64,000 bases of DNA from a virus. Below the pieces are notes generated by a model. That model was not told the origin of the DNA and ran no database searches. It worked only from the letters and a program-made list of their open reading frames with translations. Each line of letters opens with the position of its first letter. Position 1 is the stretch's first letter. Position numbers and translations under genes: made by a program. Shown here piece after piece: positions 25,512-33,206 of this stretch. The stretch is from positions 32,001 through 96,000 of IMG/VR virus record IMGVR_UViG_3300046758_000611, one strand, 5' to 3'.

Positions 25512-25838
25512 TTATCCTTCTATATAATCTATGGGTTTGTTTGTTTTAATGTTTTTCTTACAGGCCTCTTTTTTTTCAAAATACATATATGGAGAATTTT
25601 TGATATACCACTCTGTACAATGATAGACGGTTCCACTTAAGATAGGTCCTTCCGTACTCATTGATTCTGTAAACGAACCTATAAATTCATATTTGTGTTT
25701 TTCTTTTAAAAAACGGTTTGCCATATTTTTTGACCAAGATTCATTTCCTTCTTTTTTTGTTTCAAAACTATATTTCTCACCCGACTTTGCGAGTTCAAGT
25801 TTATATGATTCACCTAAACTTTCGGATACTAAATTCAT
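25512..25838 (-). CDS. hypothetical protein
   Basis: 108 aa, translationally coupled to upstream kinase. Confidence 0.55.
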   Translation of the reverse strand: MNLVSESLGESYKLELAKSGEKYSFETKKEGNESWSKNMANRFLKEKHKYEFIGSFTESMSTEGPILSGTVYHCTEWYIKNSPYMYFEKKEACKKNIKTNKPIDYIEG

Positions 25839-26869
25839 TAATCAAACTTCTCCGATTTAATTTTCATGTAAAATCTAGTAAATTCGTCACTATCTAGTTC
25901 TAAACTTTCAACTAATCTTGATAATACTGCCAAATTCCGTTGAGGTGATAGATTAAACTTTTCTATTATATAAATTGTACGACTCAAATATCGTTCAAGG
26001 TCTGCTGGTAAAATTGCTTTATCAATTTCATTTAATAGTTGTTCAGTAACACGATTTCTTTTATCACCACTTTTGCTCATTTTATCGTATGCCATCATCA
26101 TTTTGATCCATTTCTTTCCAATTGGATTTTTAATTGGTTTTGAAATAAATTTTGCTACCTCTTTCATAAGTCGTGGAACTAAATCTAATCTACCAGGTTT
26201 TGTTTTACTACGAGTATCTTCTGAATTGTCTACTATAACAAAGTTTGCTTTGAACAAACCTTGAAACTTACCAAGATTTTTTTGGACATCTGTCCAAATA
26301 TCCTTTACTATTTTTCGTGGAAGTTTTCTTTTACGCATTGCGTTTCTTTGTTGTGCGACATCAAGTGTTGTGTTTACAAACACCATATAACAATCGTATC
26401 CTAGTTTTTCAAGTTCTTTTTTTTGCTTTGATATTTTGTTATAGTTGTCACCTGTCCCATCAACAATAATACCCAAACGACCATCTTTAAATAACTCAAA
26501 TTGTTTAAGCATTATTTTCTTCGCACGGGAACGAATACTATTTGGATCATCACTTGTTACTTTGGCAAATGTTTCATCATCCATTTTAGATAAATTCAGA
26601 TCATATCCTGCCTTTTTAAGTAATATTTCAAATGCAGGATCACTGTTTACAATCTTTAAACCACTTGGTGATAAATTTTTTGCATCCGGTGGAAAATTGA
26701 ATAATGTATCAACAGTAGCAGATTTACCAGAACCAGGTCCTCCTGCTAAAAATACTGCTTTTAAAATACCAGGATCATATACACCCTCTACAAGTGTAAA
26801 GTATCCTTTACGCAATCCTGCTTTAATCAGGGTTTCTTGGACTTTTTGATTTTCTTCGGATTTTTCCAT
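25838..26869 (-). CDS. P-loop kinase (AAA_33 / zeta-toxin / PNK-like)
   Basis: 343 aa; AVFLAGGPGSGKS Walker A, VNSD, IIVDGTG, MVFVNTTLDVAQQRN..R.R lid, VIVDN. Confidence 0.85.
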   Translation of the reverse strand: MEKSEENQKVQETLIKAGLRKGYFTLVEGVYDPGILKAVFLAGGPGSGKSATVDTLFNFPPDAKNLSPSGLKIVNSDPAFEILLKKAGYDLNLSKMDDETFAKVTSDDPNSIRSRAKKIMLKQFELFKDGRLGIIVDGTGDNYNKISKQKKELEKLGYDCYMVFVNTTLDVAQQRNAMRKRKLPRKIVKDIWTDVQKNLGKFQGLFKANFVIVDNSEDTRSKTKPGRLDLVPRLMKEVAKFISKPIKNPIGKKWIKMMMAYDKMSKSGDKRNRVTEQLLNEIDKAILPADLERYLSRTIYIIEKFNLSPQRNLAVLSRLVESLELDSDEFTRFYMKIKSEKFD

Positions 26870-26912
26870 AAATACAATTCAGGTACATAATAAATATATA
26901 TCTAAATATGTT

Positions 26913-29513
26913 TTATGCTCCGTATTTTATCTTACTAAATGAACCTTCTTTTTGAATTTCTACAATTTCATCCACCATATCTCGCATAACATCCAAATGG
27001 CTAATGACTACGATGAACTCAAATTGCCCCTTTAAATAGGTAAATAGATTAAATACACTACTGATGTTATCTCCGTCTAATGTACCCCACCCTTCATCAA
27101 TAACAAGGAAATTAGAACGAGGAAGACTGCTTACATTGATAAGTGCCACACGCATAGCAATACTGCTTATGAATCGTTCCATGCCACTACACATCTCTAA
27201 AGGCCAATGACGATCTTCATAAGTAATCTTTGAGTAAATGTGTTTTCCGTCCATTTCAAGATTCATGCCGAAATCAACGATTTGAGAAAGAATATTATTA
27301 ACCTCACTTTCAATACTAGGAATAGTTTTAGAAATAAGTTCATATGAAATACCATCTCGTTTTACTGCATCAAGATATAGTTCATATCCTCGTTTTTTTC
27401 TTTCATAACTTTTTGCCTCTTCGATAGATGAAAGAACATCTTCGTGTTCTTTTTCAACAATCTTAACTTCACCAAAAAGAGTTTGAAGTTTTTCTGTTTC
27501 TTCATTTGCTATTAAATTCACTTTTGTAAGTTTATTTTGTATATCAGCAACTTCAACTTGTAAAGATTTATTAAATTCAATAATATCTTTACATTCATAA
27601 TATTCGTTGATACTTTTTTCATTTAATAGAATATCCTTTTCAAGTGATTCTATCATACTTGACAATGCAAGAATCTTGGCATCTGTTTGATTTATTTCAT
27701 AAGAAAGTTGTGTATTTTCTGATTTTAAATTATTATACAATTCATAATCACTATCAACATTTTTATATATTTCAAGTTGTTGTTCAAATTCATTTTTTCT
27801 CTTAACAAGTTCATCTGCATCTGCTTTATCTTTATCAAGTTCTTTTTTAGTAATTTCCGCACTTTCTATCAAATTTTTTGAATTAGTAACACAATGCTTA
27901 CAATTAGGATCGTATTCATGACTATCATAATGTTTCAATTTATCAAGTTTAGCATTAACTGATGTTCTTAATACTGCCAAATCTTTATCGACTAAATTTA
28001 TATTTTCACGAATTTTTAAGACATCTACATATTTTTCTTCTATACCGTCAAGTTCAGATATTTTTTTGAATTTTAGTGATTTATCGTTTGATAACTTCTT
28101 CTTTTTATCAGACTCAAGTGAACGATTATCTTTTGCCACATCAAGTCTTTCTTTTAAGTTTGTTTTATTAAATTCTAATTTATCTATATCTACGGATGCT
28201 TCCTCAAATGAGCAATTTTTAAATTGTGCATTTTTGTCTGCCAATTCTTTATTTAGTTTTTTCTGTTTTAATAAAGCAATATTAGTTCTACTATCCTGTT
28301 CATTGTATTGATGTTTAACATCTTCTAATTTTTCTTGAACATTGTTTAATGTTTCATCAAAATCTTCACGATTAAATCTTTTTAAAAGTGCGTTTATTTC
28401 TTTTATATCTTCCGATGCAGTTGTATGTAACTGATCGAACATATCTATTCCCATAAACTGAGCAAGTAAATCTTTTCTCTCACTTTGACTTTTATCTATA
28501 AAAATTGCATTATTATTTTGCAAACTAAGTGTAGTCAAAACAAAATCATCATATGACCCGACATGATCACGTATTACTGCATTGGTTCCTGCTCTTTGTT
28601 CTCCGTTTAGTGAAATTGTTTGACCTTCTTCATCATGTTTCCAGAAATCAACAACAACCGTTACATCTCCGTTCTTTTTAGTAGTTGCAGTTCTTTCTAT
28701 AAAATAATTTACTCCACTTATTTCAAAATTAAGTTTACAGTAAAAATTATCAGTTTGTGTATTCAATACGTGTGCGGCCTTGAATGCACGATCACATTTA
28801 TCAAATAAACAAAAACTCAAAGCACTCATCACACTACTTTTACCACTTGCATTTGAGGCAAATAATCCCATAACACTTTTCATGTTTGAAAAGTCTATTA
28901 TGTTTCCATCTCCGTAACTAAACATATTACCGAATTCAAACTTCTTTGGTTTCCAAATACAATTTCTTAAAACTTCTTTTACTACCAACTTTTCATTTAT
29001 TTCTTTGTTGATATCAAGAGCAGTTTTTACTTGCTCATCATCAACAACAAAATTCCTGCGAAGATAATCTTCTATTAAATCATTTTGAACTTGTATTGTA
29101 GTAATGTCACCGAAATCAAATTTATTATCACGATCATATTTTTTTGCCTCGGAAATTGCATCACAACGAGTTACATTCAAATCACTTATATTTGTTTTCT
29201 TTCGTATATCTGCTATAATTTCTTTAGTTTCAGTTGCAGTAGTATTATATACCTTTACACGAAGTCTTGCTTTTCTTGGTAATAAACTAAGATCACTAAT
29301 ACACTTTCCATCACGAACTACAATTGTATAATATCCATAATCATTGTGAACTTCGTGGTGCGTATGTGTTTGATTATTTAAGTCCCACAAAACATATCCA
29401 TGACCATTTGGTTTTTCACCGTGATTTTGTTGAATCATACTACCAGAATAAACAACAATTGGTTTATTCTTATTGTGTCTTTTTACTTTTATATATGTTT
29501 CTTTATCTTCCAT
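26913..29513 (-). CDS. sbcC: SbcC/Rad50 (gp46-like) ATPase carrying at its N-terminus the C-terminal part of the SbcD/Mre11 nuclease
   Basis: Likely start ATG 29513 (MEDKET); PIVVYSGSMIQQNHGE...GYVLWD (Mre11 C-part); NASGKSS Walker A, LSLQNN Q-loop, CKHC zinc hook, CSGMERF signature, LVIDEG Walker B, ISH. Confidence 0.9.
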   Translation of the reverse strand: MEDKETYIKVKRHNKNKPIVVYSGSMIQQNHGEKPNGHGYVLWDLNNQTHTHHEVHNDYGYYTIVVRDGKCISDLSLLPRKARLRVKVYNTTATETKEIIADIRKKTNISDLNVTRCDAISEAKKYDRDNKFDFGDITTIQVQNDLIEDYLRRNFVVDDEQVKTALDINKEINEKLVVKEVLRNCIWKPKKFEFGNMFSYGDGNIIDFSNMKSVMGLFASNASGKSSVMSALSFCLFDKCDRAFKAAHVLNTQTDNFYCKLNFEISGVNYFIERTATTKKNGDVTVVVDFWKHDEEGQTISLNGEQRAGTNAVIRDHVGSYDDFVLTTLSLQNNNAIFIDKSQSERKDLLAQFMGIDMFDQLHTTASEDIKEINALLKRFNREDFDETLNNVQEKLEDVKHQYNEQDSRTNIALLKQKKLNKELADKNAQFKNCSFEEASVDIDKLEFNKTNLKERLDVAKDNRSLESDKKKKLSNDKSLKFKKISELDGIEEKYVDVLKIRENINLVDKDLAVLRTSVNAKLDKLKHYDSHEYDPNCKHCVTNSKNLIESAEITKKELDKDKADADELVKRKNEFEQQLEIYKNVDSDYELYNNLKSENTQLSYEINQTDAKILALSSMIESLEKDILLNEKSINEYYECKDIIEFNKSLQVEVADIQNKLTKVNLIANEETEKLQTLFGEVKIVEKEHEDVLSSIEEAKSYERKKRGYELYLDAVKRDGISYELISKTIPSIESEVNNILSQIVDFGMNLEMDGKHIYSKITYEDRHWPLEMCSGMERFISSIAMRVALINVSSLPRSNFLVIDEGWGTLDGDNISSVFNLFTYLKGQFEFIVVISHLDVMRDMVDEIVEIQKEGSFSKIKYGA

Positions 29514-30429
29514 GTGTAACAATTTTCAAAATATTTTCACCAACATCTGTGTCACTTAAGAACGGACTGAGGTGCATATGACCTTGGTTCGGAAAGTACA
29601 TATTTGGTCCTAGAAATGGAACTCTATTTTCAAGGTTGTTTAAATCTCCTCCGTTTTGTTGCCAAACAACTCCTTTTGGCCCGAACATCTGGTGAATATA
29701 GTCGGTTGTGATAACAGTTCTGGTGCCCAGAGCAGATGCCATATTTGTAAGACACCCCTCAGAACCAATTACAAAATCACAATTTTTTATTAAACTTGCA
29801 GTAAAAGAAAACTTACTTGTAGAATTAATAGTTGGATATCGTTTAGAAATTGTGTCTTCGAGACCAAGTGCAAATAGAATTACCCTCGGATGATGTTCCA
29901 TGCAATTAATTATATCAAATGTGTTTCTTGTTTTTTGTCCATATCCAGAACCAGTTTCTCCACCGTCTGCGTTATTGTATTCTTCTTCAGTAAATAAGAA
30001 ACTTTTTTTATGCCAATCCATTTGGTATCCGACTTTTATTATATCAGACTTCCAGTCACCTATGTTTTCTAGTTCCTGCATACTTTTTTCAATTGCATAG
30101 TCAAGAATAGTATTTGTAAAAATTTCAAAGGTATCGTCAAAATTTTTTATTTCACATATTTTTTGAAATTGTGAAGTAATTGATTCGTATGGATTTAATG
30201 TGGAGTTGCCAGAAATTAAATTATATACTTTATCGTATACACCCTCGTTTTCCATAAAAAAAACTTTATCTATATACGGATTGCAATTTAATAACTCAAG
30301 TGGTTGTAAATAATTTATATCAAAGTGAATTTCACATAACTTGTTTTGCTTTATTTTTTTAGCAACACTACTTGCAAGTAGAATATCACCAATGTGAATA
30401 TTTCTACATTTTATCAGTATCTTACTCAT
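29503..30429 (-). CDS. GT9 (ADP-heptose:LPS heptosyltransferase)-like glycosyltransferase
   Basis: 308 aa; IGDILLASSV, NPYIDKVF, TASLIKNCDFVIGSEGCLTNMASALGTRTV match the GT9 GT-B pattern. Confidence 0.7.
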   Translation of the reverse strand: MSKILIKCRNIHIGDILLASSVAKKIKQNKLCEIHFDINYLQPLELLNCNPYIDKVFFMENEGVYDKVYNLISGNSTLNPYESITSQFQKICEIKNFDDTFEIFTNTILDYAIEKSMQELENIGDWKSDIIKVGYQMDWHKKSFLFTEEEYNNADGGETGSGYGQKTRNTFDIINCMEHHPRVILFALGLEDTISKRYPTINSTSKFSFTASLIKNCDFVIGSEGCLTNMASALGTRTVITTDYIHQMFGPKGVVWQQNGGDLNNLENRVPFLGPNMYFPNQGHMHLSPFLSDTDVGENILKIVTHGR

Positions 30430-31126
30430 CTGCTATATTCCAACCATCAAGTTTATATTTATCTTGATTGCTTTCTGCTATAAATTTATGTTCAGTTTGA
30501 TATTCCTGTAAAACTTGGTATTTGTGTATATCACCTAACATTACTATGTCATATCCGTCAAACATACCCAAATCAATATCACCACCCATGACCACATACC
30601 CCACGTCTGTGCGACTTCTTTTTACTGCTCCGTGATAAACTGCTATCTTAGTTTTAATTGATTCATCTTTTATGTCAAATCCACGAACATAATTACTCGG
30701 ATCGTCTAATATACTAAAAACACTAACTGCAACATCTCCTATTTTATATAACCCACTATTCTTTAAATAAAAAAGATTTTCATCATCCATCATATCCATT
30801 ATTGGAGATAAAACATCAAGACGGTCAGGATTATTTAAATTACAATCATGGTTTCCTGCAATTACGAGAGTTGGGTGTAGTTTTGAACATTCACGTAAAA
30901 AAGATGATATTTGGTGAATAAGTTCAGGACTCATTTCTGTTTTAGCATGAGCAATATCTCCACCAATAAAAATAATAGCATTATCGTAGTTATCTTCTTT
31001 AACTTGATTATAGAAGTTTTCAAAAACCTGAGAATATTCTGTATGCCTCTTTACATTTCGAATGTGTATATCTGCAAGATGGTATACTTTTTCAATATTT
31101 TTTAAATCTGTTTTTAACTCAAGCAT
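30422..31126 (-). CDS. sbcD: SbcD/Mre11 (gp47-like) metallophosphoesterase, N-terminal fragment
   Basis: 234 aa; HLADIH, GGDIAH, IAGNHD, YHG, LGDIHK; lacks the following YSGS motif, which begins the 26913 ORF. Confidence 0.88.
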   Translation of the reverse strand: MLELKTDLKNIEKVYHLADIHIRNVKRHTEYSQVFENFYNQVKEDNYDNAIIFIGGDIAHAKTEMSPELIHQISSFLRECSKLHPTLVIAGNHDCNLNNPDRLDVLSPIMDMMDDENLFYLKNSGLYKIGDVAVSVFSILDDPSNYVRGFDIKDESIKTKIAVYHGAVKRSRTDVGYVVMGGDIDLGMFDGYDIVMLGDIHKYQVLQEYQTEHKFIAESNQDKYKLDGWNIADE

Positions 31127-32040
31127 AATTTCTGTTTCATCAACTCACCAAAATCAAGTAGTTTGGTATTTTTTATTTTAGTAATCACCCGAAGAAATCC
31201 TACATCAGATGCATCCTCATCTTCCATTTTAACTAATCTAACTTTTATATTTTCCTTCATAAGAGATTCAGACATACTAATTGCATTTTTGTATGCATCA
31301 CTATCCAACACAATCGTAATTTCTTTTACATCGTGTTCTACTAATTTTAATCTTAACTTATTTGGAATGTTTTTACCAAGCAGGGGAATGGCATTTCTTC
31401 TTATCGCCATTGCATCAAAAACTCCTTCGCAAAAAATAATGGGTTCTTCGTAGTTTATTTGATTTTCAAAAACAACTACATCTTTACTAACAGGTGGGTT
31501 TTTGTATTTAAGATATGCAGATCCTGTATAGTCCCTTGCTAGAAAGTAATTTAGTTTGTTGTTGCAATCAAATGACGGAACTATAATACGACCACCGTAA
31601 TCCCCACCCGAACAATATCCTATTTCATATCGTTCCATGTCATATGATTGTATATTTCTTTTTTTCAAATAATTTAATGCCTTAGAGTAATCTAATTCAT
31701 TTCTATAATCACTTAGTTTTTTATATTCATATGGCAATGAAATAAATTGTTGTTCTGCATTTTCAAGTTTGGTATTCTTGGGTAACTTTACTATTTTTGA
31801 CAACTCAGCAAAATAATTATTTGGAACTTGTAATCTTTTAAACAATGAAAATATACTACGACCTTTTGCGTTGGTATCAATCCAACTTTGCCACCTCTGA
31901 GTAACGAGATTTACTGCCAACTTAGGTTTTCTATGATGAGAAAATGGGCATATAAACATAACCTCGTCTTTAGAGACGATTTTACCTGCTCCTAATACTT
32001 TTTGCAAAAGATTAAGAAGTTTTTGTTCGGAAATACCCAC
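31114..32040 (-). CDS. dnaG: DNA primase (DnaG/Toprim)
   Basis: Likely GTG start at 32040; CPFSHHRKPKL, YLKKRNI, RIIVPS, KYKNP, CEGVFDA, VLDSDA, DASD. Confidence 0.88.
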   Translation of the reverse strand: MGISEQKLLNLLQKVLGAGKIVSKDEVMFICPFSHHRKPKLAVNLVTQRWQSWIDTNAKGRSIFSLFKRLQVPNNYFAELSKIVKLPKNTKLENAEQQFISLPYEYKKLSDYRNELDYSKALNYLKKRNIQSYDMERYEIGYCSGGDYGGRIIVPSFDCNNKLNYFLARDYTGSAYLKYKNPPVSKDVVVFENQINYEEPIIFCEGVFDAMAIRRNAIPLLGKNIPNKLRLKLVEHDVKEITIVLDSDAYKNAISMSESLMKENIKVRLVKMEDEDASDVGFLRVITKIKNTKLLDFGELMKQKLCLS

Positions 32041-32567
32041 TATTTTAAAGAATACCAATGATAAAGAGATGCTACTACCGCATCAAGCATATCGTAGTTT
32101 TTTTTATCATAATTATTCTTATTATTATAGTGAACAAACTCGGACAAATCAAGCATTTTTTCAATATTATTTTTTACAAAAGTTTTACTATCCAATCCCT
32201 TTTCTCTACTTTTACCGAATACACTTTTCCGCAAGGTTGAAACATTGACGTGTTCTATTGGTATATTATACAATGCTTCTATTACATAACTTATTACCGC
32301 ATTGCATTTTGCGAGTTTTACAATTGTTTGTTGACTTGTTCTGCCACCACCAAATCCACTTAGTGAATCTTCTACTATTATTATATCAGGTGAATAATCA
32401 ACTTTATCTATACACTCAGCCACATAATGTGCTTTCGATGTTACATCAGTTTGCTTTTTGATATCAACAAAACCAGCAGATACTATTTTAGTTTTAGAAC
32501 TTGAAAAGCAATATCCTACTACTGTAGAACTTATATCAAGTCCCAAACATATATTTGTTTTTTGCAT
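32040..32567 (-). CDS. ruvC: RuvC-like Holliday junction resolvase
   Basis: LGLDISSTVVG, IIVED, KLAKCN, RKSVFG, YDMLDAVV; likely start ATG 32567. Confidence 0.8.
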   Translation of the reverse strand: MQKTNICLGLDISSTVVGYCFSSSKTKIVSAGFVDIKKQTDVTSKAHYVAECIDKVDYSPDIIIVEDSLSGFGGGRTSQQTIVKLAKCNAVISYVIEALYNIPIEHVNVSTLRKSVFGKSREKGLDSKTFVKNNIEKMLDLSEFVHYNNKNNYDKKNYDMLDAVVASLYHWYSLK

Positions 32568-32609: not shown

Positions 32610-33206
32610 TTAATATACGTTTTGACCACTTTTTGCACGAAAATCACCAGTTTGTCCGTTTCGGTTACCACGTGAGTTATCTGTACCACGAGAATCACTA
32701 AATGCAATAGTTTCTCCGTATCTACGTGTATCCATGTTTAACCGATAAAAACTTGCATCGGCCGCACTTGCTGGATTACCAGAACCGTAATCAGAGTTGT
32801 CTATTCCATAACTCATTATTTTACCACACATAAAACCACGATTGTTTGGTTTCCCGGTTACACCCTCTAAACTTGCATCGGCAGCTGCAGCCGAACGTGC
32901 TTGCTTTGTGAAAGCATTTCTGCCATTTCCAGAACCACGACCATATCCACCCAATGCTGAATCTTGTCCAAAGAAACTTACACCAGGACGATTATATTCT
33001 TTTAATTTATCTTCTGGTATACCAGGAGATCCTGCTAAGTTACCATATGTAGGTGCGGCCTGACGATATAGTGTACTTGCTGTGTTAAGACGTCCAAGAA
33101 GTCCTCCTGTTCCAACCCCCCCAAACTCAGAACCCATCGAGGGACGAGTTTTTCCGTTTTTAAATTCTACTGCCGGTGTTGCTTTATATTGTAGTACTGT
33201 TGCCAT
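32610..33206 (-). CDS. Gly/Asn/Arg-rich low-complexity hypothetical protein
   Basis: 198 aa; AAGGA RBS; ATATTTAT motif at 33237-33244; repeated SAA(A)DAS. Confidence 0.7.
   Translation of the reverse strand: MATVLQYKATPAVEFKNGKTRPSMGSEFGGVGTGGLLGRLNTASTLYRQAAPTYGNLAGSPGIPEDKLKEYNRPGVSFFGQDSALGGYGRGSGNGRNAFTKQARSAAAADASLEGVTGKPNNRGFMCGKIMSYGIDNSDYGSGNPASAADASFYRLNMDTRRYGETIAFSDSRGTDNSRGNRNGQTGDFRAKSGQNVY

Follow-up and report, generated by a model that had tools for sequence, protein, structure and literature searches.

The viral DNA analysed here is a 64,000-nucleotide (nt) window, positions 32,001 to 96,000 of IMG/VR record IMGVR_UViG_3300046758_000611. On its minus strand, the gene for an Mre11-Rad50 (SbcD-SbcC) recombination protein is broken inside the nuclease domain, and a glycosyltransferase-like gene is seated in the break. 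The locus is a block of three genes, namely an N piece with the front of the Mre11 nuclease, the gap gene, and a C piece with the remainder of Mre11 followed by a complete Rad50 (Table 1). The list of open reading frames (ORFs) shows tight overlaps and zero noncoding space between them. The N piece, with its stop codon at 30422-30424, shares 8 nt with the start of the gap gene (ATGAGTAA), and the stop of the gap gene overlaps the ATG of the C piece by 11 nt. Upstream, a DNA primase gene shares the 13 nt at its stop with the start of the N piece, and primase adjoins the N piece in all relatives. An alternative TTG start at 29522 would lengthen the C piece to 869 amino acids (aa); its homologues are 866 aa long and begin at the ATG. 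A first reading of this DNA, made from its letters alone and hereafter called the original prediction, had described an intact 308-aa GT9-like gene overlapping both neighbors, and its coordinates and quoted junction strings are correct.

The identity of the two pieces follows the same prediction closely. The N piece, called there an ORF with Mre11 motifs, matches Pfam Metallophos at 33.2 bits (cut-off, 21.5) over profile positions 2 to 190 of 191, as well as the SbcD-like phrog_100 (2.4e-16), TIGR00619 (5.6e-8), and the Pyrococcus furiosus Mre11 structure 1ii7 (2.9e-4). All five calcineurin-type motifs of Mre11/SbcD (D-x-H; G-D; G-N-H-D/E; H; G-x-x-H) lie on it. The C piece was said to open with the motif that normally follows within about 10 residues and to continue into a complete Rad50; its alignment, in which residues 1-17 are followed by the strand next to motif V of unsplit relatives, and its motifs bear this out. 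It matches phrog_77 SbcC (9e-43) and TIGR00618 (2.8e-19) and has individually located Walker A, CxxC hook, signature, Walker B, and H-loop motifs; its Pfam scores are below cut-off for SMC_N (24 bits; cut-off, 40) and SbcC_Walker_B (16.6; cut-off, 27). The beta-sandwich and capping domain of an Mre11/SbcD protein are provided only by the two chains jointly. The locus does not encode a single Mre11-Rad50 polypeptide, as the N-piece stop and a 927-nt gene lie between the pieces.

Table 1. Features of the split Mre11-Rad50 locus and adjoining genes, in window coordinates
Feature	Position	Strand	Basis or remark
N piece of split Mre11-Rad50, 234 aa	30422..31126	-	Phosphoesterase motifs I-V of Mre11/SbcD
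N-piece motifs I-V	31061-31072, 30947-30964, 30845-30856, 30629-30640, 30524-30535	-	Motif location
N-piece C-terminal tail, residues 208-234	30425..30505	-	Putative acidic clasp half; predicted strand-helix-strand, ending at hairpin turn
Gap gene, 308 aa, predicted GT-B fold, GT9-like	29503..30429	-	Overlaps both neighbors
C piece, 866 aa from ATG at 29513	26913..29513	-	Mre11 remainder plus complete Rad50/SbcC
C-piece N-terminal head, residues 1-17	29463..29513	-	Putative basic clasp half
Last two Mre11 core beta-strands, C-piece residues 18-44	29382..29462	-	Aligns just past motif V in unsplit relatives
Mre11 capping domain and linker, C-piece residues ~45-190	28944..29381	-	Alignment with fused relatives
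Rad50/SbcC ATPase	26916..28943	-	Motifs; phrog_77 spans residues 89-867
Rad50 Walker A	28833-28853	-
Rad50 zinc hook CxxC	27891-27902	-
Rad50 signature	27174-27188	-
Rad50 Walker B	27090-27107	-
Rad50 H-loop	26991-27005	-
DNA primase gene (context)	31114..32058	-	phrog_47 4.3e-34; weak Toprim/DNAG_N matches
Zeta-toxin/AAA_33-type P-loop kinase-like gene (context)	25838..26869	-	PF06414 2.4e-11; phrog_12810 8.5e-40

Several observations establish that the arrangement is authentic and maintained. The order primase, N piece, gap gene, C piece, kinase-like gene recurs in six independent IMG/VR contigs and in metagenome contig L026. Identity to the window in the six IMG/VR contigs is 76 to 94% for the N piece, 52 to 89% for the gap gene, and 80 to 90% for the C piece; the most divergent clade member found (P0058, on L026) has a C piece 70% identical and a gap gene 57% identical. 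A protein search returned C pieces of ~866 aa in 58 clusters from many samples. Misassembly, a danger named beforehand, is excluded by this shared gene order in independent contigs together with the 58 C-piece clusters. Comparison with the closest relative (L009) gives ratios of nonsynonymous to synonymous substitution (dN/dS) of 0.047 (N piece), 0.065 (gap gene), and 0.072 (C piece); in more distant clade pairs the ratio stays below 0.25, and synonymous divergence (dS) in the clade reaches ~1 or more. No second Metallophos gene occurs elsewhere in the genome record, which is 170,221 bp long and an estimated 84% complete. The split and the glycosyltransferase gene are thus kept throughout a clade of uncultured marine phages, with all three genes under strong purifying selection.

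Outside this clade, the protein is typically one chain. The next-best relatives of the C piece (50 to 54% identity) are single chains of 1060 to 1070 aa with Metallophos and AAA_23/SMC_N matches. When the N piece was searched against 1.84 billion cluster representatives, 3188 matches were returned at an E-value of up to 0.001, and the best 150 of these were mostly fusions of 1040 to 1100 aa. In a set of ~165 sequences, made up of those 150 matches, a few earlier ones, and the loci, ~147 of the representative relatives are fused, and in the great majority the loop from motif V to the next strand is 10 to 21 residues long. Unsplit genes are also present in the cultured Microcystis phage Mel-JY01 and in the 735-kb phage LR756501. 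Since the nearest out-of-clade relatives are single chains, fusion is the family norm, and the window locus is a derived, split member of a fusion lineage; alignment to these relatives supports an ancestral Mre11-Rad50 fusion, as had been proposed.

The gap gene was identified by its predicted fold. An AlphaFold (AF2) model built on a 38-sequence alignment had a mean predicted local distance difference test (pLDDT) score of 91.2 and a predicted template modelling score of 0.89. Its top Foldseek matches in the PDB were all GT9 structures (3tov at 2.5e-8, then 1psw, 2h1f, and 4rap, representing WaaF, WaaC, and TibC, down to an E-value of 1e-5), and other GT-B proteins ranked below them. The model shares the two-Rossmann GT-B fold of these GT9 heptosyltransferases and, within GT-B, most resembles them; the gap protein differs from them in having only 10 to 12% sequence identity, a TM-score of ~0.5, and no match to Pfam Glyco_transf_9 at E-values up to 10. 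The heptosyltransferase III model TIGR02201 matched just the N-terminal 60 residues, with 19.4 bits (cut-off, 170.2), there was a weak DUF354 match, and Pfam and PHROG scans gave no usable family, so the identification came from the fold. The 38 homologues share two conserved elements, an N-terminal Gly-Asp motif and a C-terminal Gly-Ser-Glu-Gly segment. Profile scans found no nuclease, NUMOD, or zinc-ribbon match in this protein, whose modelled fold is GT-B. By predicted fold and by context, rather than by sequence membership, the gap gene is a GT9-like GT-B transferase. The original prediction of a nonselfish cargo gene accordingly stands: the gene is intact, is under purifying selection, has a GT9-like fold in the model, and lacks an endonuclease domain.

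Homologues of the gap protein fall into 113 clusters, and those at 51 to 95% identity look like copies within the same gap. Among the more distant relatives, at 31 to 42% identity, three were looked up (P0223, P0228, and P0211). Each belongs to a phage-like glycan cluster that includes GT2, GT7, epimerase, and methyltransferase genes, one of the clusters having an aminotransferase gene besides, and none lies inside Mre11-Rad50; the relatives in this setting are 35 to 42% identical to the gap protein. The gap gene was probably relocated from such a cluster. The window's own genome, beyond the window, holds homologues of three neighbors from the L010 glycan cluster at C1:104411-108202 (104.4 to 108.2 kb), namely a GT1/4-like protein, a 439-aa unknown, and a GT2-like protein. 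An epimerase-like stretch follows at C1:115012-115764, and the two stretches are ~8 to 20 kb past the window end. The phage seems to keep a glycan cluster without its GT9-like gene.

At the break itself, both pieces carry extra residues. Compared with short-loop fusions, the N piece has ~21 to 27 additional residues at its C terminus and the C piece 13 to 17 at its N terminus. Both extensions, here called tail and head, are conserved within the window's clade and are recognizable in eight other split lineages (LR756508/L001, L016, L018, L020, L022, L023, L024, and P0314), in which the upstream ORF stops a few residues past a conserved Gly-Trp and the downstream ORF restarts with a short basic strand. 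The whole insert, ~35 to 50 aa, is found uninterrupted in at least five fused proteins (P0239, P0294, P0309, P0337, and P0342); P0248 and P0359 have long loops in which the likeness to the insert is less clear. Separately translated halves with novel peptides at the break, as seen here, are what has been described for intein-less genes in pieces.

The fused relatives suggest what the insert looks like when whole. An AlphaFold (AF2) model of P0239 residues 1 to 430 (mean pLDDT, 84; 73 to 89 in the insert) matches solved Mre11/SbcD nuclease-plus-capping structures, with 3qg5 at 3.9e-13. The insert is modelled as a strand (215-222), a helix (223-231), a strand (235-240), a turn, and a strand (246-253) that leads into the core strand. 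In every split form, in the window's clade and in the other lineages alike, the break falls at this one hairpin turn. The tail and the first 13 to 17 residues of the C piece would together make one mini-domain of roughly 35 to 40 aa. In the window the tail has a net charge of -3 and the head of +3; across lineages, tails are mostly acidic (-2 to -8, with one exception) and heads basic (+2 to +6). Mean identity between lineages is 38% for tails and 45% for nuclease domains. The original prediction had taken the tail to be foreign, and this does not hold, since it is conserved in the clade and in eight split lineages and is contiguous with the head in fused relatives. The tail is functional-looking, one half of a recurrent mini-domain and not foreign junk. 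An earlier idea, that the tail might be a degenerate duplicate of the next core strand (suggested by the Mel-JY01 alignment), was dropped after the fused relatives had shown the whole insert.

Whether the two chains could fold together was assessed with a complex model of the N piece and C-piece residues 1 to 200, each given its own alignment. The interaction prediction score from aligned errors (ipSAE) was 0.89, against 0.00 for the best of three controls; this value is reached by 58 of 80 solved complexes and by 2 of 110 mismatched pairs. The runs agreed in at least 84% of contacts, with a partner pLDDT of at least 71. In the model, C-piece residues 18 to 22 pair with N-piece residues 193 to 197, C-piece residues 40 to 43 pair with N-piece residues 13 to 16, and head residues 5 to 17 touch tail residues 227 to 234. 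The complex model supports both strand complementation between the pieces and contact of tail and head as a clasp. Of the proposal of two coupled chains that reassemble noncovalently, the overlapping cistrons bear out the two separate chains, and reassembly draws its support from this model.

Relatives with the same break differ in what the gap contains. No gap gene is present in L018 and L023, where stop and start overlap, in L022, which has a 17-nt gap, or in L020, which has a 174-nt AT-rich spacer. L024 and L025 hold a 284-aa NUMOD3 plus PvuRts1I_N/DUF559 gene (Vsr-like, PD-(D/E)xK) that matches phrog_559 at 1e-22 and the "homing endonuclease" phrogs 3339 and 9084. In L016 and L017, the gap gene is homologous to that of L024 (43% identity, 2e-42) and is truncated where the contig stops, and L001 (LR756508.1) holds a zinc-ribbon plus TnsA_N-like endonuclease gene, the front part of which is weakly related to the L024 gene. 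A homing endonuclease in the gap is thus found in relatives L001, L016, and L024 and not in the window, and among the split lineages seen, only the window's clade has a non-nuclease gap gene. Homologues that are split at this point with nothing inserted do exist, as the original prediction had allowed; the further possibility raised there, that the point is simply the normal gp47/gp46 boundary, fails, because L018, L020, L022, and L023 carry the same tail and head and are placed among fused relatives, which makes them empty fractures.

Some of these relatives have further features of their own. The L001 gap gene (L001:4248-5165, in a 484-kb phage) encodes three to four CxxC...CxxC zinc ribbons and a TnsA_N-like PD-(D/E)xK domain (PF08722, 5.8e-6), an architecture unlike that of the Vsr-like endonuclease which L024 has at this break. 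An IMG/VR search with the LR756508 N piece returned no relatives. In L024 (5001-6656), and also in L025, the Mre11 N piece is 551 aa long and has a LAGLIDADG intein (Intein_splicing plus LAGLIDADG_3) inside the nuclease domain, and both loci have a SegE-type GIY-YIG gene just upstream of primase (L024:3632-4042), such that three different selfish elements occur within one replication module of L024. The L020 spacer (L020:1139-1311) contains a near-perfect palindrome around AATTGTATATTTATATACAATT, which could be a leftover of regulatory hairpins like those upstream of fracture endonuclease genes (PMC2677866).

We placed the insert-bearing proteins on a tree of the nuclease domain from which the insert was excluded. 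The 18 insert-bearing rows (11 split and 7 fused with long loops) are scattered among short-loop fusions. P0250, split and with an endonuclease gene, is sister to the short-loop fused P0262 (100% support), and P0261, split with an empty gap, is sister to the fused long-loop P0294 (98%). A single clade for all 18 was rejected by the approximately unbiased (AU) test (67-row IQ-TREE; difference in log likelihood, 352; P = 1e-59). The scatter and this rejection indicate that the insert was gained, lost, or transferred several times, and as tails are no more alike than domains, these events are old.

Intein-less fracture of such a gene has a precedent. Dassa, London, Stoddard, and Pietrokovski (Nucleic Acids Res 37:2560, 2009; PMC2677866) describe many fractured genes with split inteins and one intein-less case from the Lake Gatun sample of the GOS metagenome, in which SbcD-like halves surround a Vsr-like endonuclease ORF. 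There, the first ORF has 25 extra C-terminal residues and the second 9 extra N-terminal residues, both absent in unsplit relatives, and the end of the endonuclease gene overlaps the downstream ORF. The Lake Gatun locus, as described, resembles the window in its intein-less SbcD-like split, in the extra residues at the fracture, and in the overlap of the gap gene with the downstream ORF; it differs in that its gap holds a Vsr-like homing endonuclease, whereas that of the window holds a GT9-like gene without a nuclease domain. Judging from the published description and from the Vsr-like locus L024, it looks like the same break. The description matches an L024-type locus, and the fracture itself has thus been known since 2009. 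The text of that paper calls the locus SbcD-like, does not use the words "Rad50" or "SbcC," and does not mention empty or rejoined forms.

Two other systems are informative. In Aeromonas phage Aeh1, the nrdA-a/mobE/nrdA-b genes encode halves with oppositely charged tails that are essential for activity, and the tails are proposed to arrive together with the endonuclease (Crona et al. 2010, PMC3045599). Like the window, Aeh1 is a case of a T4-like phage in which the gene for an essential enzyme is broken into separately translated halves, the break in Aeh1 being made by a free-standing endonuclease gene; the Aeh1 halves reassemble without splicing, as is likewise proposed for the window's pieces on the basis of a model. 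Aeh1 differs in the enzyme, in the endonuclease family, and in still having the endonuclease gene in the gap. Its charge polarity is reversed as well, the upstream tail being basic in Aeh1 and acidic in the window, and tail function is proven in Aeh1 but modelled here. Fusions of Mre11 and Rad50 were reported in Mimivirus R555 and in abundant marine viral metagenome homologues beside phage primase genes (Yoshida et al. 2011, PMC3175470). These share with the window an N-terminal Mre11-like part followed by a Rad50-like part, with primase adjacent; they are single chains, in a text from which the word "split" is absent, whereas the chain of the window is broken inside the Mre11 domain.

Taken together, we think it likely that this is a T4-like marine phage with a fractured Mre11-Rad50 whose two chains reassemble with the aid of a clasp, and whose endonuclease-derived slot holds a GT9-like gene. 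In this clade the Mre11-Rad50 gene, which specifies one polypeptide in a very large phage family, is fractured between motif V and the next core strand, and a single compact transcript in which stop and start codons overlap would give two separate products. No splicing would be needed, as the C piece would complete the Mre11 core of the N piece with two strands (beta-strand complementation), and the clasp would be a hairpin formed where the acidic tail of the N piece (strand-helix-strand) meets the basic head strand of the C piece. Fracture and clasp were most likely made or spread by a free-standing homing-endonuclease cassette. The GT9-like gene probably moved into the slot once, before the clade diversified, and would have stayed functional since then, expressed along with the genes of the replication and recombination module. 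It most likely entered a homing-endonuclease slot, as relatives hold such genes, or nothing, at the same break. The locus anatomy, its conservation and selection, the existence of fused relatives, and the contents of the gaps are direct observations; how the pieces bind, what the clasp does, in which order the events took place, and what the enzyme acts on are what we infer in this account.

Several points weigh against this account. The gap in the window shows no trace of an endonuclease gene, and the replacement of an endonuclease gene by the glycosyltransferase gene is therefore drawn from other lineages. The gap protein fails GT9 sequence membership on both the Pfam and the TIGR02201 profiles. 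The high score of the complex model may reflect Mre11 likeness only, as the two pieces are halves of a domain with solved relatives. The single transcription unit is deduced from the ORF overlaps and from the lack of terminator-like sites inside the three genes; the scan behind this, which is weakly informative, found no terminator-like site there, and promoter-like sites were not enriched (41 against 43.8 expected). With tails no more alike than domains, nothing points to a recent horizontal transfer of the clasp. Its scattered placement could also stem from intragenic recombination or repeated loss, and the tree is built on only ~205 columns.

The order of events might also be the reverse, with the mini-domain of 35 to 40 aa arising first as a plain surface insertion of fused chains, a stop and restart then appearing in its hairpin turn, and endonuclease genes or, in this clade, the glycosyltransferase gene landing later, so that no endonuclease would have caused the break. 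The contiguous insert in fused proteins of several lineages fits this order, as do the four of nine non-window split lineages that lack a gap gene, tails that are as diverged as the domain and hence old, and the empty locus L018, which differs from its fused sister P0294 (98% support) by little beyond a stop and start in the turn. Yet three lineages have endonuclease genes exactly at the break, two of them homologous and nevertheless distant on the tree; the fully supported pairing of endonuclease-bearing P0250 with short-loop P0262 is better explained by an invasion that brought the insert; and tails arriving with an endonuclease have a published precedent (PMC3045599). We regard the reverse order as possible, though rather unlikely. 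More doubtful still is the idea that the fracture, neutralized by the clasp, has become a reusable expression slot in an essential recombination gene, able to hold an endonuclease gene, nothing, or domesticated cargo because the clasp makes the break harmless. The glycosyltransferase gene would then be kept for translation locked to that of the Mre11-Rad50 halves, and during replication its product might possibly modify either the DNA of the phage or a partner of the repair complex.

The remaining explanations fare much worse. Interruption of an essential catalytic domain with no splicing element might suggest a decaying, nonfunctional Mre11-Rad50 gene broken by an unrelated insertion, but this is very improbable, given that both halves are intact and under strong purifying selection (dN/dS, 0.05 to 0.15) across a clade that reaches a dS of ~1 or more, that all catalytic and ATPase motifs are kept along with the tail and head, and that this is the sole Mre11-type gene in the record. 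Covalent rejoining of the halves, whether through an intron or split intein that escaped detection or through translational bypassing, is less credible again. Split inteins are reported for many fractured phage genes in the 2009 survey (PMC2677866), and relative L024 has a true LAGLIDADG intein elsewhere in its N piece; still, a cmscan of positions 26500 to 31500 against Rfam gave 0 matches at E-values up to 1, and coding sequence that overlaps on both sides of the gap gene fills the space where a group I or group II ribozyme core would lie, and the intron reading was dropped. Pfam scans found no intein match in the N or C piece, and the tail and head, at 27 and 17 aa at most, have no intein blocks; they are too short for intein halves and are retained in the mature chain of fused relatives. 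The statement in the original prediction that there is neither intron nor intein was thus correct. We know of no precedent for translational bypass of 927 nt.

T4-like phages normally have separate gp47 and gp46, which would make the locus an ordinary two-subunit SbcD/SbcC arrangement with a gene between its subunits, a reading to which we give hardly any credence because the domain boundary is in the wrong place (the whole capping domain and the two final core strands are missing from the N piece and are found on the Rad50-bearing chain) and the nearest relatives are single chains.

Two observations concern the surroundings of the locus. The Zeta-toxin/AAA_33-type kinase-like gene is always downstream of the Rad50-bearing piece in the clade (L004 to L006, L008, and L026). 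At 32610-33206 on the minus strand, the window has a 198-aa ORF rich in Gly, Ser, Asn, and Ala, with a local GC peak of 0.38 to 0.42 against ~0.31 around it.

Returning to the clasped, endonuclease-derived fracture that we favor, this type of break is known, and what is new here is the clade-wide selected cargo gene in place of an endonuclease, the finding that Rad50 is part of the same chain as the second half, the series of filled, empty, and rejoined states, and the reading of the tails as one predicted hairpin-closed mini-domain. The locus would represent a later stage in the life of an endonuclease-fractured gene, in which the selfish gene is gone while the break persists, apparently neutralized by a small clasp, and an ordinary metabolic gene, under selection throughout the clade, now occupies the vacated slot. 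Annotation is corrected as well, in that the "SbcD" ORF is part of a nuclease of which the "SbcC" ORF bears the rest. The natural split point and its clasp may be usable for engineering a two-piece Mre11-Rad50. Although not a new principle, the locus is of interest for the evolution of mobile elements and phage genomes, as it offers a natural series for how essential enzymes tolerate fission, how tail peptides may become assembly devices, and how phage gene-insertion sites may be recruited.

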